This document shows, in pieces, positions 39,229 to 59,844 of a DNA stretch of 64,000 bases. The notes beneath the pieces are model-generated. The model was not told the origin of the DNA and searched no databases. It was given only the letters and a program-made list of their open reading frames with translations. The position numbers and the translations under genes are program-made. The first letter of the stretch is position 1; each line of letters starts with the position of its first letter. The stretch comes from Bacteroidia bacterium (GTDB taxonomy: Bacteria > Bacteroidota > Bacteroidia > M30B66): contig OZ257142.1 of assembly GCA_965279035.1 (NCBI GenBank), forward strand, positions 2,400,001-2,464,000. The letters run 5' to 3'.

Positions 39229-39237
39229 ATAGCGGTC

Positions 39238-40167: not shown

Positions 40168-40169
40168 GA

Positions 40170-40613: not shown

Positions 40614-40629
40614 GAATTAAAATTTTGCG

Positions 40630-40637
40630 CAAAGATA
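40630..40637 (-). promoter_or_regulatory. Internal -7 element (TATCTTTG) for the PPIase-iaaA-M1 genes
   Basis: Exact TAnnTTTG match in the pgi-PPIase gap. Confidence 0.6.
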
Positions 40638-40651
40638 GTATTCGCCGACAA

Positions 40652-43464: not shown

Positions 43465-44847
43465 TTATTTTTTATAGGTGTACACGTAGTACTGCCAAGG
43501 CTCTAAGGTAAGTTGAATTTGATTTTTGAAAGCGACTTCTGGCTGTGCTCCGAAAATTTCTTGTGCAATCCCAGCAACATCGGGAGAATCGAGCTTAACT
43601 TTTTGTTTTTTATTGCTCAAATTCAACACAAATAAGACTTTGGAATTTTCTTTTTTACGCAGGAAGCTGAAAACGAAATCCTCTTTACCATTGGGAAGAA
43701 CAATCATTTCACCTCCATTTTCTCCACAACGCAATGCTGCTTCTTGTTTTTTCAATTTCAACATGCGTGAATAAAAGTCGGCCATCGGAAATTTCGAAAA
43801 GTCGATGGTGTCTTTATCGAAGAAACGGATGGTTTTAGCATTGGCTGCTTCTTGTCCGCTGTAGATGAGCGGCATACCATTCAATCCAAACGTTAAGACA
43901 GAAAAAGCCTTCACTCCTGCTCCAAACTTATCGTATTCACTTTTGCTCCAGGAGTTTTCATCGTGGTTGGAAGTGAAATACATGTGATAAGCATTTTTTG
44001 GAAATGACTTATTGGCTTCTAGGTATGCGGTGATGTCTTTAACTGTTTTCTTATTAGCAGCGATATCTACTAAGGTGTGGTAAAGTTTCCAACCATAAGC
44101 CATGTCAAACGCTTTTTCGTGCAGATTTGCTTCTTCTGCTTCGGCTAACATAAAGGTTCCTGGATGCAATTGTTCGAGTTGGCGACGTACATCTTGCCAA
44201 AAATCAACAGGAACCATGTAGGCCACATCGCAACGGAAACCGTCGATATTACTGGCTTTCATCCAGAATTTCATGGCATCAATCATGGCAGCGCGCATGT
44301 TCGCGTTGTCGTAATTCAAATCAGCTACATCTGACCAGTCGTCCACTGGAGATTTGATTTCGCCTTTATCGTTTTTGTTATAGTATTCGGGATGATTCTT
44401 AATCCAGGAATGGTCAAAAGCTGTGTGGTTTGCTACCCAATCAAGGATGACTTTCATTCCTAAACTATGTGCTTTGTTCACCAGATTTACCCAATCCTCC
44501 ATTGTTCCCATTTCGGGATTAACTGCCATGTAATCTTGGATGCTGTAATAGCTTCCGAGCGACCCTTTACGTTTGAGCTTTCCAATCGGTTGAATAGGCA
44601 TCACCCAAAGAATTTCTACGCCCATGTTGTGCAAGCGTTCGAGATGAGTGCCGAATTCGTTGATTGTTCCAGAAGGTGTGTACTGGCGAATGTTTACTTC
44701 GTAGATATTGCTAGTTGCGGCCCATTCGGGTGGATACGCAGTTTTCATAGCACCTGGAATTGAGGAAGACCGAGCTTTGATTTGAGGTTGAGCCATGGCA
44801 GAAATGGAGATTGCCAAAAGACAAAAGCTGAGAAGAGTTAAACGCAT
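43465..44847 (-). CDS. GH13 alpha-amylase-family hydrolase with signal peptide
   Basis: DWVANH, GFRCDVA, LAEAE and SNHDEN motifs; ATG at 44847 (MRLTLLSFCLL...AMA-Q). Confidence 0.9.
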   Translation of the reverse strand: MRLTLLSFCLLAISISAMAQPQIKARSSSIPGAMKTAYPPEWAATSNIYEVNIRQYTPSGTINEFGTHLERLHNMGVEILWVMPIQPIGKLKRKGSLGSYYSIQDYMAVNPEMGTMEDWVNLVNKAHSLGMKVILDWVANHTAFDHSWIKNHPEYYNKNDKGEIKSPVDDWSDVADLNYDNANMRAAMIDAMKFWMKASNIDGFRCDVAYMVPVDFWQDVRRQLEQLHPGTFMLAEAEEANLHEKAFDMAYGWKLYHTLVDIAANKKTVKDITAYLEANKSFPKNAYHMYFTSNHDENSWSKSEYDKFGAGVKAFSVLTFGLNGMPLIYSGQEAANAKTIRFFDKDTIDFSKFPMADFYSRMLKLKKQEAALRCGENGGEMIVLPNGKEDFVFSFLRKKENSKVLFVLNLSNKKQKVKLDSPDVAGIAQEIFGAQPEVAFKNQIQLTLEPWQYYVYTYKK

Positions 44848-44854
44848 ATGAATA

Positions 44855-47230
44855 TTAATTCGTGGCAATTTCAAATGAGATTGGATTGAGTTCGATGCTT
44901 AGTTTGGAGCCATTTACCGACAATTTGGAACCGAAGTTAGCTTTAAGCAGGTTGGCTTTGACATAAGAAGGAATTTCGATTTCGAGCTTTTGTGGTAGTC
45001 CGGAACGATTAAGAAAAAGGATTGCAGCTTGATCGAAATATTGACGTAGAATCACTAAATGATCTTTCCCAGCACTTAAAATTCGGGTATCTCCATAGCT
45101 GAGTGCTAAAGATGAACCACGCAATTTTCCGAGTTGAGCTGTTACTTTTTTAACTGATTCTTCTTCGGGAGAAAGTCCTGTAAAACGCATCATACGACGG
45201 TTATCCGGATCGTTTGCGCCTGGCATTCCGATTTCATCGCCATAATAGATGATTGGAATACCCGGAATACTCATGATAAAAGCATTGAGCATTTTCAAAC
45301 GTGCATATCCTCGCGGATCTTCCACTTTGATTTCACGCGACCAACCAGCTTCTTTCTCATCTTCACCCGGACGTTGTGATCCGCCAGCATAGTATAGAAA
45401 ACGAGGCATGTCGTGGTTTCCGGTAATGTTGCCCATCAAGGAATGACTTCCATTATACAAGGAAGATTCGTTTAGTGATTCTGCTACATTTTGGAACGAA
45501 AGATTCTCGCCAGCAAAAACGTTACGCGCATCGAAATACAAATTGAAATCGAACTGCGCATCTAACATTCCGCTACCAATGTAACTACCAATCAATTCGC
45601 GGCTTCCAAAGGTTTCACCAATCTGATACACATTGCGTTTTTCGCCTGTGATAACTTGATTTTTAATCTTCTTGGTAAGTGCTCTCCAGAATGTTTCCGA
45701 AACGTGTTTGGTAGCATCGTGACGGAATCCATCGATTTTAAATTTCTTCAACCAATACACTGCCGAATCCGAAAAAGCATCGACTGCTTCGGGTTTGTCG
45801 TAATTGATATCGGGCATAAAATCATCGAACCAAGTGGTCAAGCGTTGTGCATCCCAAATGCGAATGTTGACGGTACTATCCGCCAGGTACATCGAATTAA
45901 ACCAATCGGGATGTTGTTTGTAGAGTGGATTTTCTTTGTGGATGTGATTGGAAACGAAATCCATCACGACATTCATATTGTTAGCATGCGCTGTATTGAC
46001 AAGCTCTTCGAGCACAGCATCGGTTCCAAAACGGGTGTCAACTTTTGTTTCGAGCACTGGCCAATACCCGTGATAACCTGAGAACCAGCGCCTAGGCTTT
46101 GGGTATTCCTGCCAAGCTCCTTGCGGATTTTGTACAATTGGAGAAACCCAAAGTGTGTTGATGCCTAAACTTTTAAAATATCCGTCTTTAATTTTTTGAG
46201 TAATACCTGCAAGATCACCACCTTGATAATTGGCTTTGAAATCGATGCGAGGATCATCAACCGGTTTATCATTGAGCGAATCGCCATTGTTGAAACGATC
46301 GACCATCATGAAATACAAAATCGAAGTATGAAAATCGTCTCGTTTTAGTTGAGCAGTTTGAGTTGGAACGGCACCTTTTACTAATGGTATCAACAAATCG
46401 TTGCCTGCACCATTTTCGTTATAGCCCCAAACACGTAAGGTAGAAACATCTAATGAAGCTGCTTCTTTGGGAAGTGTAATGATGAGTTTGTTTCCTTCCG
46501 ATTTGAGCATTTCGGCAGGTAGGCGATAGTTTTCCCACACCACGAAATACTCTTTTACACCTTGTTCAGCAGCGATAGTAACTGTTCCATCGGTGTGAGC
46601 TTCAGTATGGAGGATTGGCGCTTTATCTAGCTTTCCGGCTGAGATTTTCATCACCGAATTCATCCCGCCCATTCCGTTCGGTTTGGTTTCGGTCTCGTTT
46701 GGATCGAGCATCCATTTGCCATCTGCAACTATCTGGTAGCTATAATTTCCCGGATTGAGTAGCATGCTTTTTTGCCATTTCCCATTTTCGAGCGTTAGCT
46801 GAGTCTGATCTGGTTGCCAGTTATTGATATCACCAGCAATTTGTACAGATTTATAAGTCGCGCCTTTAGGATCAAAGGAGAAGACAAATTTTTGCTTAAC
46901 CGATCGTTTCAGGATGAGTGAATACACATCGCCCTTGGACCAAATACGTAATTCGGAAATGGGTTGAACGGTAGCCGCATCCACGACTAGCGCTAGTTTT
47001 TCTTTATTGGCTGATAGTGTCGCTTTTACGCCAGTTATAGCCGAAACGGAATCGATTTGAGTTACATCAACCAAGTAGTCTTGCAGCAGAATTGTGCCCG
47101 TATCGATTGGTAATGTTAGTGGAGCCGCGATTCCAACCATAGCTGGTTCTACAGGAATATGGAAGCCATTTTTACCCGAACAGGCTGCTAATAGTATAAC
47201 GAATGGCAAATAAACAATACGATGTATCAT
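44855..47230 (-). CDS. GH13 alpha-amylase lipoprotein with a CBM48/AMPK-type glycogen-binding domain
   Basis: Lipobox LLAAC; VQIAGDINNW...YQIVADGKWMLDP; DFVSNH, GFRHDATKH, IGETF and GNHDMPR motifs. Confidence 0.9.
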   Translation of the reverse strand: MIHRIVYLPFVILLAACSGKNGFHIPVEPAMVGIAAPLTLPIDTGTILLQDYLVDVTQIDSVSAITGVKATLSANKEKLALVVDAATVQPISELRIWSKGDVYSLILKRSVKQKFVFSFDPKGATYKSVQIAGDINNWQPDQTQLTLENGKWQKSMLLNPGNYSYQIVADGKWMLDPNETETKPNGMGGMNSVMKISAGKLDKAPILHTEAHTDGTVTIAAEQGVKEYFVVWENYRLPAEMLKSEGNKLIITLPKEAASLDVSTLRVWGYNENGAGNDLLIPLVKGAVPTQTAQLKRDDFHTSILYFMMVDRFNNGDSLNDKPVDDPRIDFKANYQGGDLAGITQKIKDGYFKSLGINTLWVSPIVQNPQGAWQEYPKPRRWFSGYHGYWPVLETKVDTRFGTDAVLEELVNTAHANNMNVVMDFVSNHIHKENPLYKQHPDWFNSMYLADSTVNIRIWDAQRLTTWFDDFMPDINYDKPEAVDAFSDSAVYWLKKFKIDGFRHDATKHVSETFWRALTKKIKNQVITGEKRNVYQIGETFGSRELIGSYIGSGMLDAQFDFNLYFDARNVFAGENLSFQNVAESLNESSLYNGSHSLMGNITGNHDMPRFLYYAGGSQRPGEDEKEAGWSREIKVEDPRGYARLKMLNAFIMSIPGIPIIYYGDEIGMPGANDPDNRRMMRFTGLSPEEESVKKVTAQLGKLRGSSLALSYGDTRILSAGKDHLVILRQYFDQAAILFLNRSGLPQKLEIEIPSYVKANLLKANFGSKLSVNGSKLSIELNPISFEIATN

Positions 47231-47239
47231 AAGCGGTGA

Positions 47240-49663
47240 TTACCAAGTGATTTGAACTTCGCCCAATTGAGCAGGAAGTTCGATATACGGTAGATTTTTA
47301 ACCTGAATCGGATCTTGTGGCGGAACATGATAGGGATCGAAATCAGATATCGGCTCGACGAATCGGTAGTTTTGACTACTAACTGCCACTTCCTTTCCGT
47401 TTACAAGTAGTTTAGGTTGATTTGAGTTTTGTCCGTGCAGGTATAATTTCCAGGTTTTGATAGGTGAATGGAAGTTACCTTGACTAGCTCCAATCTGAAG
47501 TGAATTGCCGTTTAGCAAGAATTCACGGGTTGAGCTTTTGCCTTGTGCATATTCATACGTTGCACCATCATCTTCATACTGAACAAAACGAGTTGAAGCA
47601 CCCGGATATACATGAATTTCGAGTGTTTCGGCTGCTTTTTCCTTCATCAAACTCGTCACAGAATCCTGCATCAACAGTATGCTTCCAGCCTTCACATATA
47701 ATGGAAGTGTTTCCATTCCAGCTTCGAGCACCAATTCTACTCCACCCGCTTGAACTGCATCGTTGTAAATGTTGTACCATGTTCCCTCAGGGAAATAAGC
47801 CTTGTTATGAAGTTTGGTACTTTCACATGGAATGACCAAAATAGAAGCTCCGAACAAGTATTGATTCTGATAAGGATCACGGTAGATTTTAGCATCGTTC
47901 GTGTAATCGATTGCTAAAGAACGTGCTACCGGAATTCCTGTTTGAGAAGTTTCGTAAAACGAGGAATAGATATAGGGCATGAGTCGGTAGCGAAGCTTGA
48001 TGTAATTACGCGACACATCTTCTACCGCTTCACCAAATGACCAAGGCTCCGAATCGCGGCTGTTAACCATCGAATGCGAACGGAAGAAAGGTGAAAATGC
48101 ACCAAGGGCAATCCAACGAGCAAAAAGTTCTGGTGTAGCTTCTCCGGCAAATCCTCCAACATCGTAACCAGCGAATGCAACACCTGTCAAGCCCATACTG
48201 TTCACCAATCGAACGCCAGCTAACATGTGATCATCGGTACTAACATTATCGCCTGTCCACACCGCAGCGTGACGTTGAATTCCGCTGTATCCGGCACGTG
48301 TTAAAACAAACGGACGTTTCCCTTTCATGAGATTTTTCCCTCCTTCTTGCGTGCTACGAGCCATCTGCATTCCGTAAACGTTACGGGCTTTTTTATGCGT
48401 AGCACCTTCACCTTCGTAATCGAATTCAATTAGATCGGGAAGATGTTGTCCCCAAGCTGCTGGTTCATTCATATCGTTCCAGAAACCTTCTACTCCCACG
48501 TCTGTAATGGCATGCATTTTTTCTGCCCACCAAGTCCGAGCTTCTTCCTTCGTAAAATCAGGGAAAGCACTCCAACCTGGCCATACTTGTCCGTTGTATT
48601 CAGCGCCATCGGGATATTTCACGAACATGTCCAGCTTTTTGCCTTCATCGTATGCGTGATATCCGGGTTCTTTCTTAATACCCGGATCGAGAATTACCAC
48701 TACGTTGAATCCCATTTCCTTTAGCTCTTTCAACAAACCTTTGGGATCGGGAAAACGTGTAGGATGCCAAGTGAAAACTTTATAGGCTTCCATGTAGTGA
48801 ATATCGAGGTAAAGAACATCCGCAGGAATATCCTTCTCACGGAACGTACGCGCGGCATTGAGCACTTCTGGATACGGATAGTAGCTATAACGACATTGTT
48901 GAAAACCAAGGCTCCAAAGTGGAGGCATTTCCATTCTGCCGGTAAGCCAAGTATAGCGTTCAATGATGCCCGCAACTGTTGGTTGGTGGATGATGTAGTA
49001 ATTCATCTCCCCATCTTCGGCTTGGAAATACGAAAAACGATCGTTGGAGCAACCGAAGTTAAACGTGGTTTTGTGCGTATTATCAAAGAAAATCCCATAA
49101 GGACGACCTTCTACAATGCCCATATAAAACGGAGTACTCAAGTAAAGAGGATCACCATCGGTTGGATAAGCAAAATTATCGGTGTTCCAGTTAACGTAGG
49201 TTTTTCCACGGCGGTCGAGGTTACCAGTCTTCTCCCCTAGTCCGATAAAGCGCTCATCGGGTTGAAGTTGTTTATAGGTCGTGACTTCATTGGCTAACCA
49301 ACTAGTACCAAATGCAGGATCATCGGCAGTGAGGATTTTCCCATCCAAGGTATAAGCTGAAATTCGGAAAGGTGCTTTGCTGATGCGGATTTCGAGTGCA
49401 TGCGTTTTAAGAGAAAAGCCAGAAGCTGATTCACTAAAATCGAATGGTGTTGCTTGAGGTTCGTTAATTACAGCGTACGAAAATCCACTGAAGTTGCAGT
49501 CGTTCTTGGCTATCCGAACTCGAATAATTGCGTGATCGTAAACGCTTATGCGAATGTGAGCATTGCTTGTGTTGAATGTGATTTCTTGATTCGTAACCGA
49601 ATGACTGAGATAGTCGGAAACGGCCTCGTTAAAAGTTCCTCCTTGACGGTGCTGTAGCGCCAT
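47240..49663 (-). CDS. GH31 alpha-glucosidase, no signal peptide
   Basis: GLGEK, LDIHYM, WNDMNEP, WTGDN and GYDVGGF motifs. Confidence 0.92.
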   Translation of the reverse strand: MALQHRQGGTFNEAVSDYLSHSVTNQEITFNTSNAHIRISVYDHAIIRVRIAKNDCNFSGFSYAVINEPQATPFDFSESASGFSLKTHALEIRISKAPFRISAYTLDGKILTADDPAFGTSWLANEVTTYKQLQPDERFIGLGEKTGNLDRRGKTYVNWNTDNFAYPTDGDPLYLSTPFYMGIVEGRPYGIFFDNTHKTTFNFGCSNDRFSYFQAEDGEMNYYIIHQPTVAGIIERYTWLTGRMEMPPLWSLGFQQCRYSYYPYPEVLNAARTFREKDIPADVLYLDIHYMEAYKVFTWHPTRFPDPKGLLKELKEMGFNVVVILDPGIKKEPGYHAYDEGKKLDMFVKYPDGAEYNGQVWPGWSAFPDFTKEEARTWWAEKMHAITDVGVEGFWNDMNEPAAWGQHLPDLIEFDYEGEGATHKKARNVYGMQMARSTQEGGKNLMKGKRPFVLTRAGYSGIQRHAAVWTGDNVSTDDHMLAGVRLVNSMGLTGVAFAGYDVGGFAGEATPELFARWIALGAFSPFFRSHSMVNSRDSEPWSFGEAVEDVSRNYIKLRYRLMPYIYSSFYETSQTGIPVARSLAIDYTNDAKIYRDPYQNQYLFGASILVIPCESTKLHNKAYFPEGTWYNIYNDAVQAGGVELVLEAGMETLPLYVKAGSILLMQDSVTSLMKEKAAETLEIHVYPGASTRFVQYEDDGATYEYAQGKSSTREFLLNGNSLQIGASQGNFHSPIKTWKLYLHGQNSNQPKLLVNGKEVAVSSQNYRFVEPISDFDPYHVPPQDPIQVKNLPYIELPAQLGEVQITW

Positions 49664-49680: not shown

Positions 49681-50544
49681 TTATTTTTTAGCAAAATGTT
49701 GTTTCATGTGGTAGTTCACCAAACCGTAAATAGGCTTTTTGATGATGGTTCCTACCTGAATGCCCATATTTGATCCAACACGGCGCACATTATCTTCGAA
49801 ATGATAGGCAATTGAACCAATCAAATGAACTGGAACACGTTGGTAATTCTTGTAACAAGCGATGCTGCTCGTAAAGAAATCCTCCATGCCTTTATCTACT
49901 AATTTCTGAACCCAATCCAATTGTTTATTGTCGGATAAAACCTTCATAAACGAAGCTAGATATACATTTGCATGAGGTTTCATGTAGACGTTTTCTACGA
50001 TAATGTCGCGACTTAACTTGAAATCGTTCGCGAGAACGTTGTGGATTTCATCAGGTAAACTATTGGAAAGGAACTTCTTACACAGGATTTTACCATAGTA
50101 AGAACCGCTTCCTTCATCACCTAGAATATAACCGAGACCGAGTCCGCTGTTGGCTTGTTTCACGATATCACCATCGAAGTAGCAGGAATTGGAACCTGTC
50201 CCAAGAATTCCTGTAATGGCAGGATTTTCATCCCAAGTAGCGAAAGCAGCACCCACAAGATCGTGGTCGACATAGATATTCGCATTAACGAAAACCGATC
50301 GTAAAGCACGTTCAACAACCAGTTTTAATTCTTTACTGGAGCAACCAGCACTGTATAAAAACAACATGGTTACTTGTGGAGCCAATTCGCATAAACCAGT
50401 ATTCTGGCGGATGGCATTGGAGATAACCGCTTCGTTGTGGAAATAAGGATTGAATCCCATGGTGCTGAAACTTTGTGCCTCCTCGTTTTCTTTGAGAAGC
50501 ATCCAGTCGCACTTAGTAGATCCGCTATCGGCAATGAGTAGCAT
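49681..50544 (-). CDS. BadF/BadG/BcrA/BcrD-family sugar kinase (GlcNAc-kinase-like)
   Basis: LIADSGSTKCDW, GILGTGSNS and GYILGDEGSG motifs. Confidence 0.88.
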   Translation of the reverse strand: MLLIADSGSTKCDWMLLKENEEAQSFSTMGFNPYFHNEAVISNAIRQNTGLCELAPQVTMLFLYSAGCSSKELKLVVERALRSVFVNANIYVDHDLVGAAFATWDENPAITGILGTGSNSCYFDGDIVKQANSGLGLGYILGDEGSGSYYGKILCKKFLSNSLPDEIHNVLANDFKLSRDIIVENVYMKPHANVYLASFMKVLSDNKQLDWVQKLVDKGMEDFFTSSIACYKNYQRVPVHLIGSIAYHFEDNVRRVGSNMGIQVGTIIKKPIYGLVNYHMKQHFAKK

Positions 50545-50562: not shown

Positions 50563-52185
50563 TCAAAGTATAAAATCGGTCGACAAAAAATTAGACTTTC
50601 TGCCTTCGAGAATTTGAGTAAAAACGTGACGATTTTCTTCTGTGTCGCGCGTTGCAACCATGGTACGAATGGAGAAAACTCGTAGTGCATCAGTCACACT
50701 TAAGGTACCTTCGGCTGAGTCTTTTCGTCCATTAAATGGATAGTTATCGGGACCACGCTGACATTTAGTATTGATGTTAATCCGACAAACCTGATTAATC
50801 AGTGGATCAATCAATTGAGCGATTTCATCTGCATCATTACTGAAGATACTAACTTGTTGTCCGTAGTGGCTTTGTACAATGTATTCCACCGGTTCATCCA
50901 CCGAATCGAAAGCAATAACTGGAATGACAGGACCAAACTGTTCTTCCTGATATATACGCATGGTATTATTAACTGGGAAAAGCACGGTTGGAAAGTAAAA
51001 ACTAAGGTGACTTCTACCTCCACCTTCATTCAAAATGCTAGCACCTTTAGCTATTGCATCATCGACTAGTTCTTGCAAATAGGCCGGTTTACCTGGTTCG
51101 GGAAGTGGCGTGATATAGGCATCTTTTTCCCAAGGCATTCCAGCTTTTAGCAATTCTACTTTGAAGCACAATTGTTCTAGGAAAGCATCGACAATAGAAC
51201 GATGTACATAGATTAATTTAAGAGCAGTACAACGTTGACCATTAAATGCCAGAGCACCATTTAGGCATTCTGAAACGGCAATGTCCAAATTAGCATCGGG
51301 CAGAATGATAGCTGGATTTTTAGCATCTAATCCGAGAACCGAACGCAAGCGATTGGAATGAGGATGTTGTTTTTTGAGGATGTTTGCAACTTTGCTAGAA
51401 CCAATAAAGGCAAGAACATCTATTTTGCCCGTTTCCATGAGTGTTCCAGCGGTTTCTTTACCATCACCATAAATCACATTGATGACACCAGCAGGAAAAC
51501 ACGTTTTGAATGCTTCAAGTAAAGGATGGATGAGCAGGATTCCAAATTTAGCTGGACGAAAAATCACGGTATTTCCCATGATTAAGGCGGGAATTAGCGT
51601 GGCGAACGTTTCGTTTAAGGGATAATTATAAGGGCCCATACATAGCACCACTCCCAAAGGACCTCGCCGAACTTGAGCATAAATACCATGATGCAATTCG
51701 AGTCGTGATGTTTCGCGATCAAGATTTTTGACGGCATCAAGGGTATCTTCAATGTATTCGACAGTTCGATCGAATTCTACTTCTGAATCACTTTGATTTT
51801 TACCAATTTCGAACATCAGCCAACGTACAATCAGCTCCCGTTTTTCAATCATCTGACGAAGGAAATGTTCAATAGAAGCAATACGATCACGGACTTTTAG
51901 TGTAGGCCATTCACCTCGCCCCAAATTATACGCATTGAGCGCCGATTCGAGTACTTGTTGTATGTCATCTGGTCCCATTTCGGGATAGGAGCCTAAGCGT
52001 ATTTTTTCGAAAGAATCACCCTTTTGAACATAGATGGGCGAGTAAACATCTGTTTGCTTACCAGTCCATGGTTTTAGCTCACCATTACATAGAAATACAC
52101 GTTGATCGAGTACCTCGGGTTGAAGTCCGCTAGGTACCTGATTTACTTGGGGAAAAAGATCTATGTAAGAGCCGGTATGCAGCAT
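50563..52185 (-). CDS. gapN: Non-phosphorylating NADP-dependent glyceraldehyde-3-phosphate dehydrogenase
   Basis: ALDH fold with RRGPLGVVLCMGPYNYPLNE, FIGSS, LGLDAKNPA, FNGQRCTA, EEQFGP and CQRGPD.YPFNGRKDS; located in a glycolytic operon. Confidence 0.88.
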   Translation of the reverse strand: MLHTGSYIDLFPQVNQVPSGLQPEVLDQRVFLCNGELKPWTGKQTDVYSPIYVQKGDSFEKIRLGSYPEMGPDDIQQVLESALNAYNLGRGEWPTLKVRDRIASIEHFLRQMIEKRELIVRWLMFEIGKNQSDSEVEFDRTVEYIEDTLDAVKNLDRETSRLELHHGIYAQVRRGPLGVVLCMGPYNYPLNETFATLIPALIMGNTVIFRPAKFGILLIHPLLEAFKTCFPAGVINVIYGDGKETAGTLMETGKIDVLAFIGSSKVANILKKQHPHSNRLRSVLGLDAKNPAIILPDANLDIAVSECLNGALAFNGQRCTALKLIYVHRSIVDAFLEQLCFKVELLKAGMPWEKDAYITPLPEPGKPAYLQELVDDAIAKGASILNEGGGRSHLSFYFPTVLFPVNNTMRIYQEEQFGPVIPVIAFDSVDEPVEYIVQSHYGQQVSIFSNDADEIAQLIDPLINQVCRININTKCQRGPDNYPFNGRKDSAEGTLSVTDALRVFSIRTMVATRDTEENRHVFTQILEGRKSNFLSTDFIL

Positions 52186-52193
52186 GTTTTGTA

Positions 52194-53174
52194 TCAAACG
52201 GAAAGAATCGCAGCAATACGCAGCAGTTCGTTTTCGAAGTTATTTACGTTTTTAGTAGCCTGATCGAAGGCCGTAAATTTAACTTGATTATTGACAATGC
52301 CTATCATCACTCCTGATTTGCCTTCTAACAGACTTTCAACAGCTACAACTCCCATCCTACTTGCTAAAACACGATCGGCAACTGTAGGTGAACCGCCCCG
52401 TTGAACGTGACCGAGTATGGTAACTTTGGTATCGTAATGGGCAAAACGATCAGTAACTTGTTTGGCAATATCCATCGATCGTCCTGGTTTTCCGGCCTCG
52501 GCAACTACAACCAAACTGGATGATTTTTTTCCAACAGCTCCAATTTCGAGTAATTTAATTAGACCGTCAATATCGAGTGGACGTTCTGGTATCATAGTAG
52601 CTTCGGCGCCTGCAGCGATGGAGCTTTGCATGGCAATCATTCCAGAATCACGCCCCATCACTTCGATAAAAAACAATCGATTATGGGAAGATGCAGTATC
52701 GCGTACTTTATCAATTGCTGAACAAGCTGTATTTACAGCGGTGTCGTAACCGATGGTGAAATCTGTTCCATTCACATCATTATCAATGGTACCAGGTAAA
52801 CCTACTACTGGAATTCCGTATTCTTTAGAAAAAATTTCCGCACCTCGAAATGTACCATCGCCACCAATGGCAACCAATGCATCTACCTCAAATGATTTTA
52901 GATTATCGTAAGCTTTTTTCCGTCCTTCAGGAGTCATAAACTCCATGCTGCGTGCAGTTTTGAGGATAGTTCCGCCACGTTGGATAATATTAGAAACCGA
53001 ACGACTATCGAGTACTTTGATATCGCCCGAAATCATTCCATCATAGCCTCGGTAAATTCCAACGGGAGTTAATTTGTAAAAGATACATGCCCGAACAACG
53101 GCACGAATAGCAGCATTCATTCCGGGAGCATCACCACCTGAGGTAAAAATTCCTATGCGTTGAATCTTGGACAT
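52194..53174 (-). CDS. pfkA: ATP-dependent 6-phosphofructokinase
   Basis: TSGGDAPGMN, IGGDGT, PGTIDND, EVMGR and LGHVQRGG motifs. Confidence 0.97.
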   Translation of the reverse strand: MSKIQRIGIFTSGGDAPGMNAAIRAVVRACIFYKLTPVGIYRGYDGMISGDIKVLDSRSVSNIIQRGGTILKTARSMEFMTPEGRKKAYDNLKSFEVDALVAIGGDGTFRGAEIFSKEYGIPVVGLPGTIDNDVNGTDFTIGYDTAVNTACSAIDKVRDTASSHNRLFFIEVMGRDSGMIAMQSSIAAGAEATMIPERPLDIDGLIKLLEIGAVGKKSSSLVVVAEAGKPGRSMDIAKQVTDRFAHYDTKVTILGHVQRGGSPTVADRVLASRMGVVAVESLLEGKSGVMIGIVNNQVKFTAFDQATKNVNNFENELLRIAAILSV

Positions 53175-53196
53175 AGTCTTAAATAATTGGCTAAAT

Positions 53197-53217
53197 TAAG
53201 TGTTATAATGACACTTA
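53197..53217. promoter_or_regulatory. Putative NrtR-family operator 1 (pfkA operon)
   Basis: TAAGTGT-TATAATG-ACACTTA, perfect 7-bp arms, 22 nt upstream of pfkA. Confidence 0.75.
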
Positions 53218-53319
53218 GTTTCTTAGTAAGTGAAAATTATCAACATCTGTACTCATTTGTGGCTTGCAAGATGGAAAAAAATTGTGATAGAACCTGCAAT
53301 TATCTAAGTAAGTAGCTGT

Positions 53320-53340
53320 ATGGTGTATCATTGACACAAT
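53320..53340. promoter_or_regulatory. Putative NrtR-family operator 2 (autoregulation)
   Basis: ATGGTGT-ATCATTG-ACACAAT upstream of the regulator. Confidence 0.65.
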
Positions 53341-53374
53341 TCATCATAAAACAGTATATTTACCCACCTTTTCA

Positions 53375-54145
53375 ATGAATTTGCTACACTCTATGCCGAC
53401 GGCCGTAACTCGTACCGCTCAGCTTAATCCGCACGTTTCAGTAGACTGCGTCATATTTGGTTTTGACGAAGGGGAACTGAAAGTGCTGTTGATCGAACGC
53501 GACCTTGACATCACGGATCAGCGAACCCGTAAATTTTCTTTACCGGGCAACCTGATTGACGATAATGAAGATTTAGATACTTCTGCTAAACGAATATTAA
53601 AAGAGCTCACCAGTTTGGATAATATTTTCTTGGAGCAGTTTTATGCTTTTGGAGATCCCAATCGGGTAAAAAACAGTTCCGATGTGCAATGGTTAAATGC
53701 TGTTCGGGATGTTCCAACAGCTCGTGTAATTACAGTTGCCTATTATTCTTTGGTGAAAATTGGTGATTACCAACCATCAGCTGCATCCTTTGCACGTAAG
53801 GCTTTTTGGTGCCCTGTTTCTCAAGTTCCTGAATTGGCTTTCGATCATAATCAGATATTCAATCAGGCATTACTAAGTTTGAAAACCAAGCTTCGTATTC
53901 AACCCATTGGATTTGAGTTATTACCAGATAAATTTAGTTTAGGACAATTGCAGAAAGTGTATGAAACAATATTAGGTACAACACTCGATAAGCGTAACTT
54001 CCGCCGCAAAATTCTCAACAAAGGATTCCTTAAAGCTTTACAAGAAAAGCAGAAAGGTGTACCACACAAACGAGCTCGATTATTTGAGTTTGACAAAGAA
54101 GCATACGACCGACTCAAGGCCGATAAATTTTACTTCGAATTCTAA
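53375..54145 (+). CDS. NrtR/AraR-type transcriptional regulator (Nudix-like domain plus wHTH)
   Basis: SVDCVIFGFD..LKVLLIER, FLEQFYAFGDPNR, LAFDH, LLPDKFSL.QLQ.VYE.ILG and DKRNFRRK motifs. Confidence 0.92.
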   Translation: MNLLHSMPTAVTRTAQLNPHVSVDCVIFGFDEGELKVLLIERDLDITDQRTRKFSLPGNLIDDNEDLDTSAKRILKELTSLDNIFLEQFYAFGDPNRVKNSSDVQWLNAVRDVPTARVITVAYYSLVKIGDYQPSAASFARKAFWCPVSQVPELAFDHNQIFNQALLSLKTKLRIQPIGFELLPDKFSLGQLQKVYETILGTTLDKRNFRRKILNKGFLKALQEKQKGVPHKRARLFEFDKEAYDRLKADKFYFEF

Positions 54146-54150
54146 TAAAT

Positions 54151-54182
54151 ATCCCCGACTCGATCAGTCGGGGATTTTTTTT
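54151..54182. terminator. Terminator between the regulator and the T9SS gene
   Basis: atccccgact-cgatc-agtcggggattttttt. Confidence 0.8.
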
Positions 54183-56547
54183 ATTCGTTTACTAATTGAA
54201 TTCTTGAGTAATGTGTTCCGAATTGATTGGAAATCTCGATCAAATAAACACCTTGTGATTTGCCTACTAAATCATCTAAAATAATTGTTCCAGCTTGAAT
54301 GAATTTCTTTTCTGTAACGATTGCTCCCGTTGAAGTTCGAATGATGAGATGATCAATTTGAACATCAGAATGAAGTTGAAAATTTCCTGAAGTTGGATTT
54401 GGAAAAAGAATTATTGGCGAAAGTGAAATACTTGCTTCTATTCCAACATTAGTAACGTTTACAGTTGTAAAAGCAGTATCAGCACCACAGGCATTACTAA
54501 CAATTAAACGAATAATGTATTGACCAGGACTGGGATAAGTAAAACTAACATCACCCGCAGTAGTATTATCTACCGAACCGTTATTTTGGAAATCCCAAGC
54601 ATAATATGCAGTAAGAGTGCTTGCATTAGTAAAGTTTACAGTCAAACCATTTTGTTGCGTTGTGAAAGATGCAGTTGGACTTATGTTTTCTGTTACAGTA
54701 ATTTGATCTGATGCTGAACAACCAGCAGTATTGGTTACCGTTAATTCATAGGTGCCTGCAACTGCTGTCGTAAATGTTTGAGTTGTTGCACCATTTGACC
54801 AATGATATGAAGCAAATCCTCCTGTTGACACAATAAAAACAGGTTGATTATTACAACTTGTTTTGTCGGGACCGAGATTAAGAATGGGATTTGGAGAAGT
54901 GATCACAGCAATCGTATCATTTACTGAACAACCCAATTGACTGCTCATACTCACCCAATAAGTACCTGGCGTTGTGACCATAATGCTTGCAGTACTTTCG
55001 CCCGTTGACCAAAGAATTGAATCGTAACCGCTTGTTTGAATCGTAGCTGTAAGTCCTGCAAATGGGGAATAAGGAGGATTTTGAGAAAGACTTAGAAAAA
55101 TATCATTTCCATTTTCATCTTTACCTGTTGATGTTCCAGTTGCATTTCGAAATACCATGAATAGACCGTTCACCGATGAATCTGGATTGATTCCATAATA
55201 ATCGTAAACATTGATTGTAATGGACCAAAGATCTTCCCCAATGTTAGTCATTTCGCCCAATCCATCGTTCACACCCCAATTACCTACCCATGGGCTAACA
55301 GGTCCACCCATTGGTGCATATTCGAAACTAGAATGCATATAAACACTGTTCGATCCGCTCAGATCAGATTGACCTTGTGTGGCATCATAGACAATGGTTA
55401 ATGAATCTCCCAAAGGGGTGATTTTTACACCCGGAAATAATTCAAGAGGTGCACCACCGCATATTGTACCCGTTACACCTAGGTCAATTGGAGCTAAAGT
55501 AAGTTCAGAAATAGTGATAGAATCTCGATGTGATTCTGCACCAATAGTAGCTTCTAGCCAATATGTACCAGGCGTATTGACAAATAAAGTTGAAGCAGTT
55601 GAACTATCCGACCATAAATAGGAATCGAAAGTACCAGCAGTTTGCAAGGTATCCTGAATGTTTCCGGGACAAGAAAGGATATCATCACCCAAACCAAACG
55701 AAAGAAATGGATCTACAACACCGTATAGAAAATTATAACCATCATCGTTTAAGAAATCGAGTGTGAGCAAATCGTAGTTAGAGGTTGGATTATCGATCGT
55801 AGTTGAAAAGTAATAATAAGAAACAGCTAATCCAGCCGCAAAGCCCGGAATAGTCGCTGTACCCGTGGTACCTACAACCGAAACAGGAATGATGTGGCTT
55901 GTTGCGTAATAATCGGTGCTATAACGTAAATAAAATTTCTCTTCGGGTGAAGGTATTGCGCTAAGAAGAAGAGTTGCAGTAACAGGAGTTTGAGGACCAA
56001 CTGTTGTTCCGATTATGTTAATAGATTGACTAAGAAGCGAAACGGGTTCATTACTAGTTTCCATGAAAATGGCTCGGTTTGCTTGGTAGCCTATGTCTTG
56101 CCAATTCATGGTGTACACTTTATTGTTTTGTACAGTGATACTATTATCTGCTCCAGTATTGTATTGATAAGATTGCAATGAATCAATGATGACGTTAACT
56201 CCTGCCCATTTGTTGGCAAAAGGAGTAGCATTAGGTCCTGATGTAAATAAGAAACTATACGTCCCAGCCGAAGTATCAGCATTGGAATTGGCAATGTGGA
56301 TTCGGGTTTGCCAGCGACGTGTGCCGGTGTTTATGGGATGAACGGTGCCGAGAGCTTGGGTTGAACTTCCGTAAACCGATCCTGTTGTTGGTGGATTAAC
56401 AAAACTGTTCCATTGTCCGGGAAGATTTAATCCTTCGAGTTCGTATATCTGAGCATTGACCAATGAAAATGAAGTGCTCAAACACAGAAATAAAAGTAAT
56501 TTGAAACTGTTCAGAATTCCTGAACGATAAGCATAACGGTGTTGCAT
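54181..56547 (-). CDS. T9SS-secreted non-catalytic protein with a putative glucan-binding module, SprB-like repeats and a PKD domain
   Basis: Signal peptide; three LG.D...C...WS.G...V..PGTY repeats; PKD motif (VNFTNAS...YAWDF...FTYPSPGQY); LFPNP...GVYLIEI CTD. Confidence 0.8.
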   Translation of the reverse strand: MQHRYAYRSGILNSFKLLLFLCLSTSFSLVNAQIYELEGLNLPGQWNSFVNPPTTGSVYGSSTQALGTVHPINTGTRRWQTRIHIANSNADTSAGTYSFLFTSGPNATPFANKWAGVNVIIDSLQSYQYNTGADNSITVQNNKVYTMNWQDIGYQANRAIFMETSNEPVSLLSQSINIIGTTVGPQTPVTATLLLSAIPSPEEKFYLRYSTDYYATSHIIPVSVVGTTGTATIPGFAAGLAVSYYYFSTTIDNPTSNYDLLTLDFLNDDGYNFLYGVVDPFLSFGLGDDILSCPGNIQDTLQTAGTFDSYLWSDSSTASTLFVNTPGTYWLEATIGAESHRDSITISELTLAPIDLGVTGTICGGAPLELFPGVKITPLGDSLTIVYDATQGQSDLSGSNSVYMHSSFEYAPMGGPVSPWVGNWGVNDGLGEMTNIGEDLWSITINVYDYYGINPDSSVNGLFMVFRNATGTSTGKDENGNDIFLSLSQNPPYSPFAGLTATIQTSGYDSILWSTGESTASIMVTTPGTYWVSMSSQLGCSVNDTIAVITSPNPILNLGPDKTSCNNQPVFIVSTGGFASYHWSNGATTQTFTTAVAGTYELTVTNTAGCSASDQITVTENISPTASFTTQQNGLTVNFTNASTLTAYYAWDFQNNGSVDNTTAGDVSFTYPSPGQYIIRLIVSNACGADTAFTTVNVTNVGIEASISLSPIILFPNPTSGNFQLHSDVQIDHLIIRTSTGAIVTEKKFIQAGTIILDDLVGKSQGVYLIEISNQFGTHYSRIQLVNE

Positions 56548-56578
56548 AAACTCCGTAGTTTAGGGTTATTAAAACGAA

Positions 56579-56599
56579 TGAGTGTCAAAAATACACTTT
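56579..56599. promoter_or_regulatory. Putative NrtR-family operator 3, overlapping the -7 element TATTTTTG (56586-56593, minus strand)
   Basis: TGAGTGT-CAAAAAT-ACACTTT. Confidence 0.7.
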
Positions 56600-56655
56600 A
56601 ATAGGACATCTGATTAATCAATTCAACTTGATTTCAGCTGCTAAATTAAATTACA

Positions 56656-57054
56656 ATGGAAATAAACCTCACTACTCCCGCCCTGCTCTTTCCAGCAATT
56701 TCTTTGTTATTACTGGCTTATACAAATCGATTTCTTGCAATTGCCAATTTAATTCGAGGCTTGAAAAAACAATATGAACATGAGCACGATTCGAATCTAT
56801 TGGAGCAAATTATAAATCTTCAAAAACGTATTATACTAATTCGAAATATGCAGGCAGCGGGAATAGCAAGTATTATGTGTTGTATGCTGTGTATGTTCGA
56901 ATTGTATTTAGGCTATCAGCTTTCGGCAAAATTCCTCTTCGGTATTAGTTTGATCTTGATGATGATATCACTTTTCTTGTCATTTCGTGAAACGATGATT
57001 TCTGTTCATGCCTTGAATCTCGAACTAAAACAATTACTAAAAAGTAAAAGTTAA
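56656..57054 (+). CDS. DUF2721 membrane protein
   Basis: LTTPALLFPAISLLLLAYTNRFL motif; three hydrophobic helices. Confidence 0.85.
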   Translation: MEINLTTPALLFPAISLLLLAYTNRFLAIANLIRGLKKQYEHEHDSNLLEQIINLQKRIILIRNMQAAGIASIMCCMLCMFELYLGYQLSAKFLFGISLILMMISLFLSFRETMISVHALNLELKQLLKSKS

Positions 57055-57099
57055 ACTTCCGATAAACAGTATATGATGCAGATTATGAACGAAATAAAA

Positions 57100-59538
57100 T
57101 CATTTCAATAATTCCATTCGGGCAGGTAATTTCACAAGTGCAAACTTGCCAATTTCGATAAAACGTTTAATCCAATCAAGCTTATTGCTTTGTTGCTTGA
57201 ATCGAAGTAACTCCGTGTTTTCGAGAAGCATTTTCCCTTTCGAGAAGAAATCATTTTGAAATTCTACCAAATCGGGTTCAATATCGAGTGTTTTTAAAAC
57301 CTCGAAAATCTGCACCAGCGAATCCAAGGTCTTTAAATCAGAATCATCGTATTTTAATGTTCTGAGCATTTGAAGCAATTTATTACTTGCTGCAAATCCA
57401 ATAGTGGTTTTATCTAGCTCAACTTCCCATTTCTGAGCATCACTTGCCAATTGATTTAATCGTGAAGTATTAACAAGTCCATTTTCGAATACATGCCGCA
57501 AATCGGTATTGATTACATTTTCCAAATTCTTTATCAATACAGGCGGAATAGGCAATCGAGCATCACTCATTACTGTCATGATGTTGTAATTCCGATTGAA
57601 AATACTTCGGAACGAATCTTCCGCTTGCAAAACATCTTTTTGAATAATCTGATTCAATACTTTACGTTGTTCATCCTTGAACAAATTCCATAAAGAAAAC
57701 TTCTCTGGACCAAAGTAAATCTGCATGATACCAATCACCTCGGCTACATTACTCTCTTGAAATGCCAGCGTGATTTCTTTCTGCATTTGAGCATAATCTT
57801 CCTCCTCAATAAAACTACTTGAATTGCCAATGATGTGGTTTTGTCCAAGCCAGATTACAGCAAAATAGAACTTCTTTACACTGTATGTAATCAAAGAATT
57901 AACGGTTGTTTTGCCAATTGCAACGCGCAAAGAACCAGCATCTAAACGTAAATAATGATCATTGCTAGCTCGGTAGTTACATATTTGAAGATTCTCAGGA
58001 ACTTCTTCGAATAAAGAAGCTACGGCATAATGAGAACCAACGCGCGACAAGGTTAATCGTGAAGGTTGAACGAATTTTTTATGAATGATAGCTCCATTTT
58101 GATAAGCAGGAACATTGCTTGGAGCGGTTTTCAAACGTTGAAGAAACTCTTTTTCCAATACAATACTACTTTCGCTTTCAGCTAACTGAATGGCTCGATC
58201 GGCATACTGCAAAATTTGGGTGGTTTCAATGCCCGATATCTCATCGAAAAACCAACCACAACTTGTATACATTAACATAGCATGGCGCTGCATTTCGAGC
58301 ATGCGCATCACACGTGTTTTATGATCGCCTTCGGGAATCATGCGACAATGTTCAGAAAGAAACTGGTTTACCGATTTATCGCTTCGATCTAATACAATGG
58401 AGATATAGGCGTTTCGTGCAGTCCAAGGATCTTGCATGTAACGACTTAACTCCTTTTCATAAACAATTGAAAGTTGATCACGCAACCAATTTAAGGAATC
58501 TCTCAAAGGCGCTCTCCATGCTTGATTCCATTCGGGATTCATGCCTGAACTACAACCACAATCGGCTTTCCAGCGCTCAACTCCATGCACACAACTCCAG
58601 GAACTATTTTCGAAAATTTCTACTTCCCATTCAGCTGGAACGAGATCTAAAAACTGACCATAATTGGTAATACTGGCTAAGTTGTTTTGTTCAATATAGT
58701 CGATGCAATAAGCTAAAGCCATATCTCCGCGAAGGTGATGATGCCCATAACTTTCTCCATCAGTAGCTACATGAATTAAACGCTTTCCTTCACCTGAATT
58801 CAATTCACACAAGCGAGTTGCAAATTCTTTCCCATCGATCAACAATCCTTTAAAGGCAATGTCTTGAGAGATGTTTCCATCATAAAAGAACAATACGATG
58901 GATTTTCCAGAAGGAAGTTTACAGATATAGGGTTTTGTGGAGTCAATCCGTTCTCCTGAAACATCGGTCCAATCGGAATTTGGTGCTTTCACTTTAGATG
59001 CCTGACGCGGAGCTAAAATGGTAAAACGTATTTCGTTTTCGGCTAAGACCTCTAACGTTTCAGTATCAACAGCAGTTTCGGCTAGCCACATTCCCTCAGG
59101 CTTGCGATCAAAACGTGATTCAAAATCACGAATTCCCCAAATCACTTGGCTTTCCTTATCGCGTCGATTAGCTAAAGGCATGATCAAATGGTTGTACACT
59201 TGAGCCAAGGCATTTCCGTGACCACCAAAGTTTTTTCGGCTTACTCGATCAGCTTCCAAAACCCGCTGATAAGCAGCAGGAGTATGTTGCTCCATCCACT
59301 GCAATAGTGTAGGACCAAAATTGAAACTGATCTTTTCGTAATTATTTACAATGTTGATGATTGATTGTTCATCATCTAAAATGCGAGATGTTCCATTGGG
59401 ACCATAACATTCATGAGCAATGCGTTCATTCCAGTCGTGGTAAGGATATGCTGAATCTTGCTGTTCTATGACTTCTAACCAAGCATTTTCACGAGGCGGC
59501 TGATAAAAATGGCCATGAATACAGACATATTTCTCCAT
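57100..59538 (-). CDS. GH57 glycoside hydrolase with DUF3536
   Basis: CIHGHFYQPPRENAW, GMWLAETAVD, ATDGESYGHH, SWSCVHGVERW and MYTSCGWFFDE motifs; no signal peptide. Confidence 0.9.
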   Translation of the reverse strand: MEKYVCIHGHFYQPPRENAWLEVIEQQDSAYPYHDWNERIAHECYGPNGTSRILDDEQSIINIVNNYEKISFNFGPTLLQWMEQHTPAAYQRVLEADRVSRKNFGGHGNALAQVYNHLIMPLANRRDKESQVIWGIRDFESRFDRKPEGMWLAETAVDTETLEVLAENEIRFTILAPRQASKVKAPNSDWTDVSGERIDSTKPYICKLPSGKSIVLFFYDGNISQDIAFKGLLIDGKEFATRLCELNSGEGKRLIHVATDGESYGHHHLRGDMALAYCIDYIEQNNLASITNYGQFLDLVPAEWEVEIFENSSWSCVHGVERWKADCGCSSGMNPEWNQAWRAPLRDSLNWLRDQLSIVYEKELSRYMQDPWTARNAYISIVLDRSDKSVNQFLSEHCRMIPEGDHKTRVMRMLEMQRHAMLMYTSCGWFFDEISGIETTQILQYADRAIQLAESESSIVLEKEFLQRLKTAPSNVPAYQNGAIIHKKFVQPSRLTLSRVGSHYAVASLFEEVPENLQICNYRASNDHYLRLDAGSLRVAIGKTTVNSLITYSVKKFYFAVIWLGQNHIIGNSSSFIEEEDYAQMQKEITLAFQESNVAEVIGIMQIYFGPEKFSLWNLFKDEQRKVLNQIIQKDVLQAEDSFRSIFNRNYNIMTVMSDARLPIPPVLIKNLENVINTDLRHVFENGLVNTSRLNQLASDAQKWEVELDKTTIGFAASNKLLQMLRTLKYDDSDLKTLDSLVQIFEVLKTLDIEPDLVEFQNDFFSKGKMLLENTELLRFKQQSNKLDWIKRFIEIGKFALVKLPARMELLK

Positions 59539-59606
59539 ATGTAATGTTAATTCTAAAAATGCGTAAAGCCGTTTTGAAATTTTAGAAAGGAGGGCAATGT
59601 TAGGGA

Positions 59607-59627
59607 AATTTGTCTAAATGACACTTT
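59607..59627. promoter_or_regulatory. Putative NrtR-family operator 4 (GH57)
   Basis: AATTTGT-CTAAATG-ACACTTT; shares AATGACACTT with operator 1; one core mismatch. Confidence 0.55.
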
Positions 59628-59844
59628 GAAACCATTCCTCAGAACTTCAAAAGAACCAAATTGTGGATAAAATCTTGAAGATATCCAGCTTTTTTCAATC
59701 CTTGAAATCGTTTATTTTCAAGCCATACAACTACAAAACACGCAGTTTCAAGTCCTTGCTAATAGTTCATTTTTTCTGTTCAAAACTTCATAACATTCGC
59801 GGTCTTTATTTGTTAGTTTTGCAGAAACCAATTCATGGCGGAGT

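Follow-up and report, generated by a model that had tools for sequence, protein, structure and literature searches.

A 64,000-nucleotide stretch of DNA from a Bacteroidia bacterium (contig OZ257142.1, positions 2,400,001 to 2,464,000), here called the window, carries four palindromes built on the core GTGT-N7-ACAC in the vicinity of a gene for an NrtR-family regulator. Judged by its sequence, the regulator belongs to the AraR/XylR sugar-responsive branch of this family, and the palindromes, named O1 to O4, are very probably the docking sites of this neighboring, sugar-sensing repressor. They precede the pfkA operon, the regulator gene itself, a gene for a protein secreted by the type IX secretion system (T9SS) and a gene for a GH57 enzyme. 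We estimate a probability of about 0.85 that a sugar-responsive repressor of the AraR branch binds O1 to O4 and in this way places alpha-glucan use and upper glycolysis under common control. The family of the regulator, the operator motif and its conservation, the positions of the sites and the content of the regulon across genomes were established by computation.

Predicted operator sites in the window and near orthologous regulators

All four palindromes reported in the preliminary description were present at their positions (Table 1). The called gene borders placed each of them in an intergenic gap, and the half-site TGACAC was found on one strand of every site, both as had been described. 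The gap between pfkA and the regulator gene (53175-53374) holds O1 and O2, the gap between the T9SS gene and a DUF2721 gene (56548-56655) holds O3, and the gap on the 5' side of the GH57 gene (59539-59844) holds O4. Relative to the start codons, O1 spans positions -43 to -23 of pfkA, O2 positions -55 to -35 of the regulator gene, O3 positions -52 to -32 of the T9SS gene, and O4 positions -89 to -69 of the GH57 gene.

The number of sites exceeded the chance level. The window contains three exact copies of the core GTGT-N7-ACAC, where 0.56 would be expected, and as many were reached in one of 100 shuffles. For a finer measure we used a 23-bp matrix trained on 52 unique sites upstream of orthologous regulators, taken from other genomes only, which themselves scored 14.0-30.9 bits. 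Exactly O1 to O4, and no other place in the 64 kb, scored at least 8 bits. Matches of at least 11 bits arose on average 0.37 times per shuffle of the whole window, and none of 60 shuffles reached four. When the 4,829 bp of intergenic DNA were shuffled 300 times, the mean was 0.027 and the maximum was one. A copy of AGTGT-N7-ACACT with one mismatch lies at 50684-50700 within the GapN-like coding region; it scored below 8 bits and was treated as chance.

The motif was then followed through 160 loci with orthologous regulators, 80 from species-representative genomes (45-67% regulator identity) and 80 from metagenome contigs, the latter being absent from the matrix training. Enough upstream DNA for assessment was present in 158 of them. 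Exact cores were found within 300 bp on the 5' side of the regulator in 49 of the 80 species-representative loci, with a density of 2.09 per kb upstream of the regulator versus 0.0216 per kb in the remaining DNA of these loci. The divergent neighbor of the regulator was a sugar kinase (39 loci, the most frequent), pfkA (35) or a GH13 gene (1) in 75 of the 158 loci. The spacer shared by these divergent gene pairs contained a site of at least 14 bits in 74 of 75 cases, at the position equivalent to O1. Among the metagenome pairs, unused in training, 41 of 42 had a site of at least 14 bits and all 42 had one of at least 10 bits. Both O1 and the divergent arrangement with pfkA were kept in locus L082, whose regulator is 79% identical. 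An unbiased count of all 4-mer palindrome half-sites with spacers of 3 to 11 nucleotides ranked GTGT-N7-ACAC first, in 67 of the 75 divergent spacers (mean length 89 bp) versus 14 of 613 background spacers, and the runners-up were shifted registers of the same palindrome. Over all loci together with the window, 140 matches of at least 12 bits fell in 219 kb of intergenic DNA versus 11 in 1,834 kb of coding DNA. The conservation in orthologous promoters on which the proposed regulon depended was thus observed, including in the independent set.

The positions of the sites relative to promoters were consistent with repression. The consensus of the -7 box in Bacteroidota-type promoters is TAnnTTTG. 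The spacer of O3 encloses an exact box, TATTTTTG, which lies on the same strand as the T9SS gene and spans positions -46 to -39 relative to the ATG of that gene. At O1, TAATTTAG overlaps the final two bases of the site and spans positions -24 to -17, counted from the start codon of pfkA. The earlier observation that the third site contains a -7 box and that the first abuts a similar one therefore stands. Near-consensus boxes overlap or abut O1, O2 and O4. In the relatives, sites were mostly located 28-40 bp on the 5' side of the first gene, and this spacing, together with the box within O3, supports the repressor geometry proposed before. O2 is a probable autoregulation site, to judge from its place in front of the regulator gene. 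Its right arm is overlapped by a sigma-70-like pattern, TTGACA-18-TATATT (11 of 12 positions, 53331-53360), which is probably irrelevant in this phylum, but gives an alternative reason for that half-site. A scan of the window for sigma-70 promoters found 32 against 44.1 expected, and is uninformative for this phylum.

The regulator and its predicted contacts with DNA

The regulator has a NUDIX domain at residues 19-160 (9.6e-7), an NrtR_WHD domain at 179-239 (3.7e-25) and an AraR_C domain at 176-252 (5.8e-13), which bears out its assignment to the NrtR family. Its closest solved structure is BtAraR (4e-44), the repressor of Bacteroides thetaiotaomicron. In an HMMER alignment, the DNA-contact residues K206, R207, N208, K232 and R233 were identical to K179, R180, N181, K204 and R205 of BtAraR, and the sixth contact, K184, was replaced by R211. 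Apart from R233, the DNA-contact residues were invariant in 28 homologues with 57-84% identity.

The Nudix signature GX5EX7REUXEEXGU was impaired at residues 59-81, where N59 and S80 take the places of Gly, and I74 and L78 those of Glu. This degenerate pattern resembles that of BtAraR in the alignment. A Nudix domain with such an impaired signature is described in the NrtR family as a ligand binder and not as a catalytic domain. The triad that forms hydrogen bonds with the sugar in BtAraR, R34, R86 and H131, was kept as R42, R97 and H158, and was invariant. The residues lining the pocket on its C4/C5 side were altered (F36 to L44, G48 to N59 and F49 to L60), and a 14-residue insertion, V98-R111, follows R97 relative to BtAraR. 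We rejected the identification of the protein as an AraR orthologue, on account of the neighboring pfkA, gapN, kinase, GH31 and GH13 genes and of the pocket residues L44, N59 and L60.

In a quick maximum-likelihood tree of 162 sequences with midpoint root, the regulator of the window fell into a clade of 120 sequences (SH-aLRT 100) that contained all 39 kinase-linked and 27 of the 34 pfkA-linked regulators. The seven other pfkA-linked sequences were in a second clade, and six paralogues from the same genomes lay outside the clade of 120.

The operator and the regulator also varied together. In six loci (L057, L078, L118, L122, L153 and L157), the upstream core GTGT was replaced by GCGT-N7-ACGC, within TTAGCGT-N7-ACGCTAA. 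All six regulators have Asn or Ser at the position of K206, while none of the 136 regulators with Lys or Arg there had a GCGT site. The equivalent residue of BtAraR, K179, forms a hydrogen bond with the first G of GTGT. The change of this lysine to Asn or Ser together with that of GTGT to GCGT may represent a natural switch of the recognition code. Three further loci (L142, L147 and L155) have Asn at the position of K206 and neither a GTGT nor a GCGT site; they have in common an upstream ATAC-N7-GTAT palindrome, which may be a third operator type.

Genes preceded by sites

The tightly packed string of genes from pfkA to pgi on the minus strand begins 33 bp from the center of O1 (Table 1). No convincing terminator was found within this string; the sole strong hairpin is that behind the regulator gene. 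From the gene arrangement, pgi would be a member of the pfkA operon, and in L108 and L161 pgi is likewise located on the 3' side of GH13 genes. Judged from its context only, the BadF-type kinase may act as glucokinase. The GapN-type non-phosphorylating enzyme between pfkA and the kinase is also found in a Chitinophagales genome (L012:7274-8842, 62% identity). Its placement suggests an NADPH-yielding bypass of lower glycolysis under shared control. Beyond the fba gene, pgi is followed at very short gaps by genes for a cyclophilin, an asparaginase-2 family protein and an M1 peptidase (36799-42307), again with no convincing terminator, and the pfkA transcript could extend over 16 kb into these unrelated genes.

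Table 1. Predicted operators, genes and terminator of the window
Feature	Positions	Strand	Sequence	Basis or remarks
O1, predicted operator	53197..53217		TAAGTGT-TATAATG-ACACTTA	7+7+7 without mismatch; 24.9 bits
O2, weak predicted operator	53320..53340		ATGGTGT-ATCATTG-ACACAAT	6/7 arm pairs, exact core; 12.0 bits
O3, predicted operator	56579..56599		TGAGTGT-CAAAAAT-ACACTTT	5/7 arm pairs, exact core; 18.9 bits
O4, predicted operator	59607..59627		AATTTGT-CTAAATG-ACACTTT	5/7 arm pairs, core mismatch (TTGT); 11.2 bits
NrtR/AraR-type regulator, 256 residues, degenerate Nudix and winged helix	53375..54145	+		domain profiles
pfkA, ATP-dependent 6-phosphofructokinase, first operon gene	52194..53174	-		TIGR02482 402.6 bits, above cut-off
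GapN-like aldehyde dehydrogenase (non-phosphorylating glyceraldehyde-3-phosphate dehydrogenase)	50563..52197	-		11 best solved matches all NADP-dependent GapN, 4e-73 to 1e-55
BadF-type sugar kinase	49681..50544	-		nearest solved relatives GlcNAc and MurNAc kinases, ~1e-49
GH31 alpha-glucosidase	47240..49663	-		domain profiles
GH13 enzyme with glycogen-binding AMPK1_CBM module	44855..47230	-		domain profiles
GH13 alpha-amylase	43465..44874	-		domain profiles
Class II fructose-bisphosphate aldolase (fba)	42381..43460	-		same order in L004 and L008
Glucose-6-phosphate isomerase (pgi)	40652..42307	-		73 bp after fba
T9SS-secreted protein, 788 residues, DUF4961-like domain (residues 381-489)	54181..56547	-		domain shared with secreted amylases
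GH57 + DUF3536 alpha-glucan enzyme	57100..59538	-		domain profiles
Two-way terminator hairpin, 10-bp stem and T run	54151..54175			between regulator and T9SS gene

The T9SS-secreted protein is probably a surface protein that binds alpha-glucans, as its domain relationships and sites suggest. In genome G010, its full-length orthologue (42% identity over residues 12-725) is preceded by a site of 23.6 bits, 26 bp on the 5' side of the first ATG. Of the homologues matched through the N-terminal or central part of the protein, 17 could be assessed, and 14 of these have a site no more than about 220 bp on the 5' side. Twelve loci in which the match was limited to the PKD or C-terminal part had no site, and are an unfair control, as the gene start lies outside the locus in 11 of them. 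Residues 381-489 shared 34% identity (3e-15) with the DUF4961-like domain at the N-terminus of a secreted amylase whose gene is itself preceded by a site. The G029 homologue of the N-terminal domain also bears CBM20, CBM48 and X25 modules. An Atlas search with the T9SS protein returned only leads below 0.9 (DUF4961, CBM48 and CBM25). Homology to the site-bearing X25/CBM48 T9SS proteins of G004 and G008 was considered and rejected, with best E values of 2.7 and 0.14.

The preliminary description had placed the sites before the pfkA operon, the regulator, a pair of T9SS and DUF2721 genes, and GH57. The DUF2721 gene is to be struck from this list. None of its eight orthologues in 32 genomes had a site of at least 10 bits within about 1.5 kb, a single 9.1-bit match being found inside one orthologue gene. 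O3 was therefore assigned to the T9SS gene. The other assignments stood as to position, with O2 weak and not conserved, and with the GH57 site seldom found in orthologues. Orthologues of GH57 were present in 10 of the 32 genomes. In three of these ten, a site lies just past the 3' end of GH57 and belongs to a small CBM48 gene of 101 residues; six had no site within their flanks. In three Flavobacteriales genomes (L173:1147-1452, L176:1140-1445 and L166:3984-4290), GH57 is adjoined by the gene of a stand-alone glycogen-binding protein (CBM48) with about 101 residues, and this gene is preceded by sites of 15.5-21.2 bits in L163, L165 and L166. Elsewhere in the window, and without relation to the regulon, a gene for a ComA-type (2R)-phospho-3-sulfolactate synthase (61251-62039, 2.9e-86) follows a TPR gene.

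The genes preceded by sites in relatives supported the proposed regulon of glycolysis plus alpha-glucan use. Sites that had not been used in training precede a GH65 phosphorylase, a CBM48-GH13 (pullulanase-type) enzyme, a secreted DUF4961-amylase, a protein of 1143 residues with CBM20, CBM48 and X25 modules, and SusC-like receptors at five loci. They also precede gap, zwf, a lactate/malate dehydrogenase gene and an MFS transporter gene. In the closest genome, G001, a 26.6-bit site lies 34 bp on the 5' side of pfkA, though the regulator gene is located elsewhere.

The genome scan proposed earlier was run on relatives. Exact AGTGT-N7-ACACT occurred eight times in G003, nine times in G008 and six times in G004, versus zero, one and one copies of the reversed control. 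For G001, G003, G004 and G008 together, 23 of 25 places were examined in context; 21 of the 23 were intergenic. Alpha-glucan genes, pfkA or a DUF4961-like gene adjoined 14 of the 23, namely GH13 (five), small CBM48 (two), T9SS X25/CBM48 (two), pfkA (two), GH57, a GlgE-like gene and a DUF4961-like gene (one each). The other places adjoined gdhA, amtB, pckA, a DEAD-box helicase gene, groES (only 7.7 bits) or unknown genes, or were located inside open reading frames. The genomes G001 and G008 have only one NrtR-family gene apiece, and therefore one candidate binder for their sites. Sites of 16-26 bits precede pckA, the glutamate dehydrogenase gene and the ammonium transporter gene (L178 of G001; L172 and L192 of G008), a hint that in some lineages the regulon extends to gluconeogenesis and nitrogen assimilation.

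Several observations weigh against the reading of O1 to O4 as operators of one sugar-responsive repressor. The loose pattern AGTGT-N7-ACACT with up to two mismatches was not enriched in the window (24 copies, 22.85 expected), and the signal therefore depends on the exact core and its flanks. The core of the matrix was fixed by the choice of training sites, which is partly answered by the unbiased palindrome count. Among the loci with other neighbors, only 28 of 83 had an upstream site of at least 14 bits. No site was found upstream of the regulator in its closest relatives, L081 (81% identity) and L001, L083 and L084 (64-67%); in these loci and in L010, which also has no upstream site, the regulator closely follows another, co-directional gene. 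G001 showed no genome-wide excess of AGTGT-N7-ACACT, with two copies versus two in the control. Paralogues of the AraR/XylR type share the core motif, and with two family members in both G003 and G004, sites may be cross-bound by a paralogue. The six GCGT loci all belong to one clade, so that the co-variation probably reflects one evolutionary event and is suggestive rather than statistical support. The nearest solved relatives of the kinase act on GlcNAc and MurNAc, which leaves its role as glucokinase, and with it glucose as effector, as conjectures. Finally, O2 was not conserved in L082, the only close relative that shares the layout, an upstream site was found at GH57 in one of ten orthologues only, and O4 carries a mismatch in its core.

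The points on L082 and on the GH57 orthologues belong to the strongest alternative, in which O1 and O3 alone act as operators, the resemblance of O2 and O4 to the motif has arisen by chance in AT-rich spacers, and the regulon in this genome consists of the pfkA operon and the T9SS protein. The scores of O2 and O4 are below the training range, and the right arm of O2 doubles as the TTGACA of the sigma-70-like pattern. Matches as strong as these are nevertheless expected only 0.027 times over all intergenic DNA of the window, and the exact core about 0.004 times per 200-bp spacer at the background rate. The GH57 orthologue with an upstream site is that of the closest genome, where a 15.4-bit site lies 36 bp on the 5' side of a GH57-GH13-pgi string, and several relatives (e.g. 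L022, L069, L072 and L123) have second sites in the regulator spacer. We therefore regard the reduced regulon as unlikely, while granting it more weight than the other alternatives.

The regulator might instead be a classical NrtR that responds to ADP-ribose or NAD and thereby ties glycolysis to the NAD status of the cell. The sole NCBIfam match to the protein was indeed a model for an ADP-ribose-responsive repressor, though at 120.8 bits it was far below the cut-off of 400. The pfkA operon also includes the NAD(P)-linked GapN, and in a distant planctomycete relative, L064, a site precedes the gene for NAD synthase. However, the next structural match after BtAraR, the MutT/nudix family protein 3gz5, was much more distant (3.9e-14). 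Where the Shewanella regulator contacts the ADP-ribose phosphates, this protein has L44, L78 and T115, as in AraR, where the nucleotide cleft is described as filled. Being hydrophobic or small, these residues make a nucleotide effector less likely. In addition, no gene for NAD synthesis adjoined any of the 75 glycolytic divergent pairs. Taken together, these features make a nucleotide-sensing NrtR improbable. Still less credible is the view that a different factor binds the palindromes, or that they are promoter or terminator features lying near the regulator by coincidence: O3 does hold a -7 box, many sites have T-rich, promoter-like spacers and three GH57-adjacent sites of relatives at first seemed to lie between convergent genes, but those three in fact precede the small CBM48 gene, the motif accompanies the gene of the regulator through different orders (49 of 80 and 74 of 75 loci), it matches the operator described in complex with the closest homologue, BtAraR, and its core becomes GCGT where the DNA-contact lysine changes.

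Proposed mechanism and relation to known systems

For the repressor of the AraR branch preferred here, we infer DNA binding, the sign of regulation and the nature of the effector by analogy with BtAraR. The dimer of the regulator without ligand would bind the 21-bp GTGT-N7-ACAC operators, which are placed over or just downstream of Bacteroidota-type promoters. O1 would block the operon pfkA-gapN-kinase-GH31-GH13-GH13-fba(-pgi), O3 the T9SS-secreted, probably glucan-binding protein, and O4 the GH57 gene, with O2 as a weak site at the promoter of the regulator itself. A small sugar in the catalytically dead Nudix pocket would then rotate the winged helices and free the DNA, as proposed from BtAraR. 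Loss of the repressor from the DNA would turn on, in one step, the capture and hydrolysis of alpha-glucans outside the cell, the phosphorylation of sugars and upper glycolysis. As to the effector, D-glucose is a guess with roughly even odds, the other candidates being a malto-oligosaccharide or a hexose phosphate. Glucose is favored because the constant targets are the sugar kinase and pfkA, while the variable targets are glucan-degrading.

A wider and more tentative reading, which we consider possible but doubtful, is that the clade represents a central-carbon regulator of Bacteroidota other than Bacteroides (Flavobacteriales, Chitinophagales, Cytophagales, Saprospirales and Sphingobacteriales), with a glucose-sensing Nudix-fold repressor coordinating four layers of sugar use. 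In the first layer, glucans would be captured outside the cell by amylases, SusC-like receptors and T9SS-secreted binding proteins. A second layer would comprise the phosphorylation of sugars and upper glycolysis (pfkA, fba, pgi, gapN and gap), and a third the turnover of glycogen (GH57, the GlgE-like enzyme and the small CBM48 protein). In some lineages, zwf, pckA, gdhA and amtB would form a fourth. If this were true, the regulator would play the part that CcpA, Cra or CggR play elsewhere, with a dead Nudix enzyme as its scaffold, and its recognition code would be readable from one helix residue, with Lys specifying GTGT and Asn or Ser specifying GCGT.

Central sugar regulation outside gut Bacteroides is poorly charted. 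The regulatory pathways of polysaccharide-utilization loci in marine Bacteroidetes were described as unknown in 2020 (PMC7641319). In our data, one recognizable operator connects glycolytic genes and a sugar kinase with the capture of starch-type glucans in 75 of 158 assessable loci, and so gives a rule for predicting genes responsive to glucan sugars in uncultured Bacteroidota. The pairing of Lys to Asn or Ser with GTGT to GCGT offers a testable switch of specificity.

Metabolite-released repressors of glycolytic and/or starch genes are familiar from other bacteria, such as CggR of Bacillus subtilis, Cra/FruR and HexR of proteobacteria, and regulators of the SusR/MalR type. To our knowledge, these analogues belong to unrelated families (CggR to SorC, Cra/FruR to LacI, HexR to RpiR, and SusR to its own), and none of them has a Nudix fold or the operator described here. 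Within the NrtR family, the classical members (Shewanella SO1979 and Synechocystis Slr1690) are described with the same domain architecture, a GT-N7-AC palindrome and the positioning of a repressor. They differ in sensing nucleotides and controlling NAD genes; their ADP-ribose phosphate contacts are replaced in the present regulator, and the sequence similarity is weak.

The family paper of 2008 describes most NrtR motifs as 21-bp palindromes with a GT-N7-AC core (PMC2330246). BtXylR (BT0791) and the groups Bacteroidetes-1a, 1b and 1c are described there and in PMC3878776 with predicted regulons for xylose, arabinose and the pentose-phosphate pathway. They share with the present regulator a branch restricted to Bacteroidetes, clustering with sugar-catabolic genes and the 21-bp palindrome with GT-N7-AC, but their published regulons concern pentoses. 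The words glycolysis, glucose, glucokinase and amylase have no occurrence in the available text of PMC2330246, and the NrtR-family regulons described in the accessible parts of the published accounts (PMC2330246, PMC4666351, PMC3878776 and PMC7641319) concern NAD, arabinose, xylose and the pentose-phosphate pathway only. The preliminary description knew of no regulon of glycolysis and alpha-glucan use for this family, in agreement with our literature search, which found no account of NrtR-family control of glycolysis, glucose or alpha-glucan, the supplementary tables of PMC2330246 and PMC4666351 and RegPrecise being outside the search.

The closest known system is BtAraR (BT0354), the L-arabinose-responsive NrtR-family repressor of B. 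thetaiotaomicron (PDB 5bs6, 5dd4, 5ddg and 5deq; PMC4666351). According to that account, the oligonucleotides of its electrophoretic mobility shift assays and crystals all carry GTGT-N7-ACAC, and the contacts K179, R180, N181, K184, K204 and R205 "define GTGT". This bears on the candidate new regulon of the preliminary description. The BtAraR operators share the core, and therefore the motif was already known, while the regulon appears to be new, and probably the effector as well. For a regulator of the AraR/XylR type, the target set would be the new element, joined to a known operator. The two proteins are alike in combining a degenerate Nudix domain with a winged helix, in a GTGT-N7-ACAC core within a 21-bp palindrome, in five identical DNA-contact residues of six with the sixth changed from Lys to Arg, in the Arg/Arg/His sugar triad, and in sites at the promoters of catabolic operons as well as of genes for SusC-type proteins and glycoside hydrolases. 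They differ in the residues lining the pocket, in the 14-residue insertion and in the preferred operator flank, which is TTA/TAA-GTGT here. Above all, BtAraR controls araMPRDAB and arabinan loci, whereas the regulator of the window would control alpha-glucan use together with pfkA, gapN, fba and pgi, which would extend the AraR/XylR type from pentoses to the control of hexose use and glycolysis.

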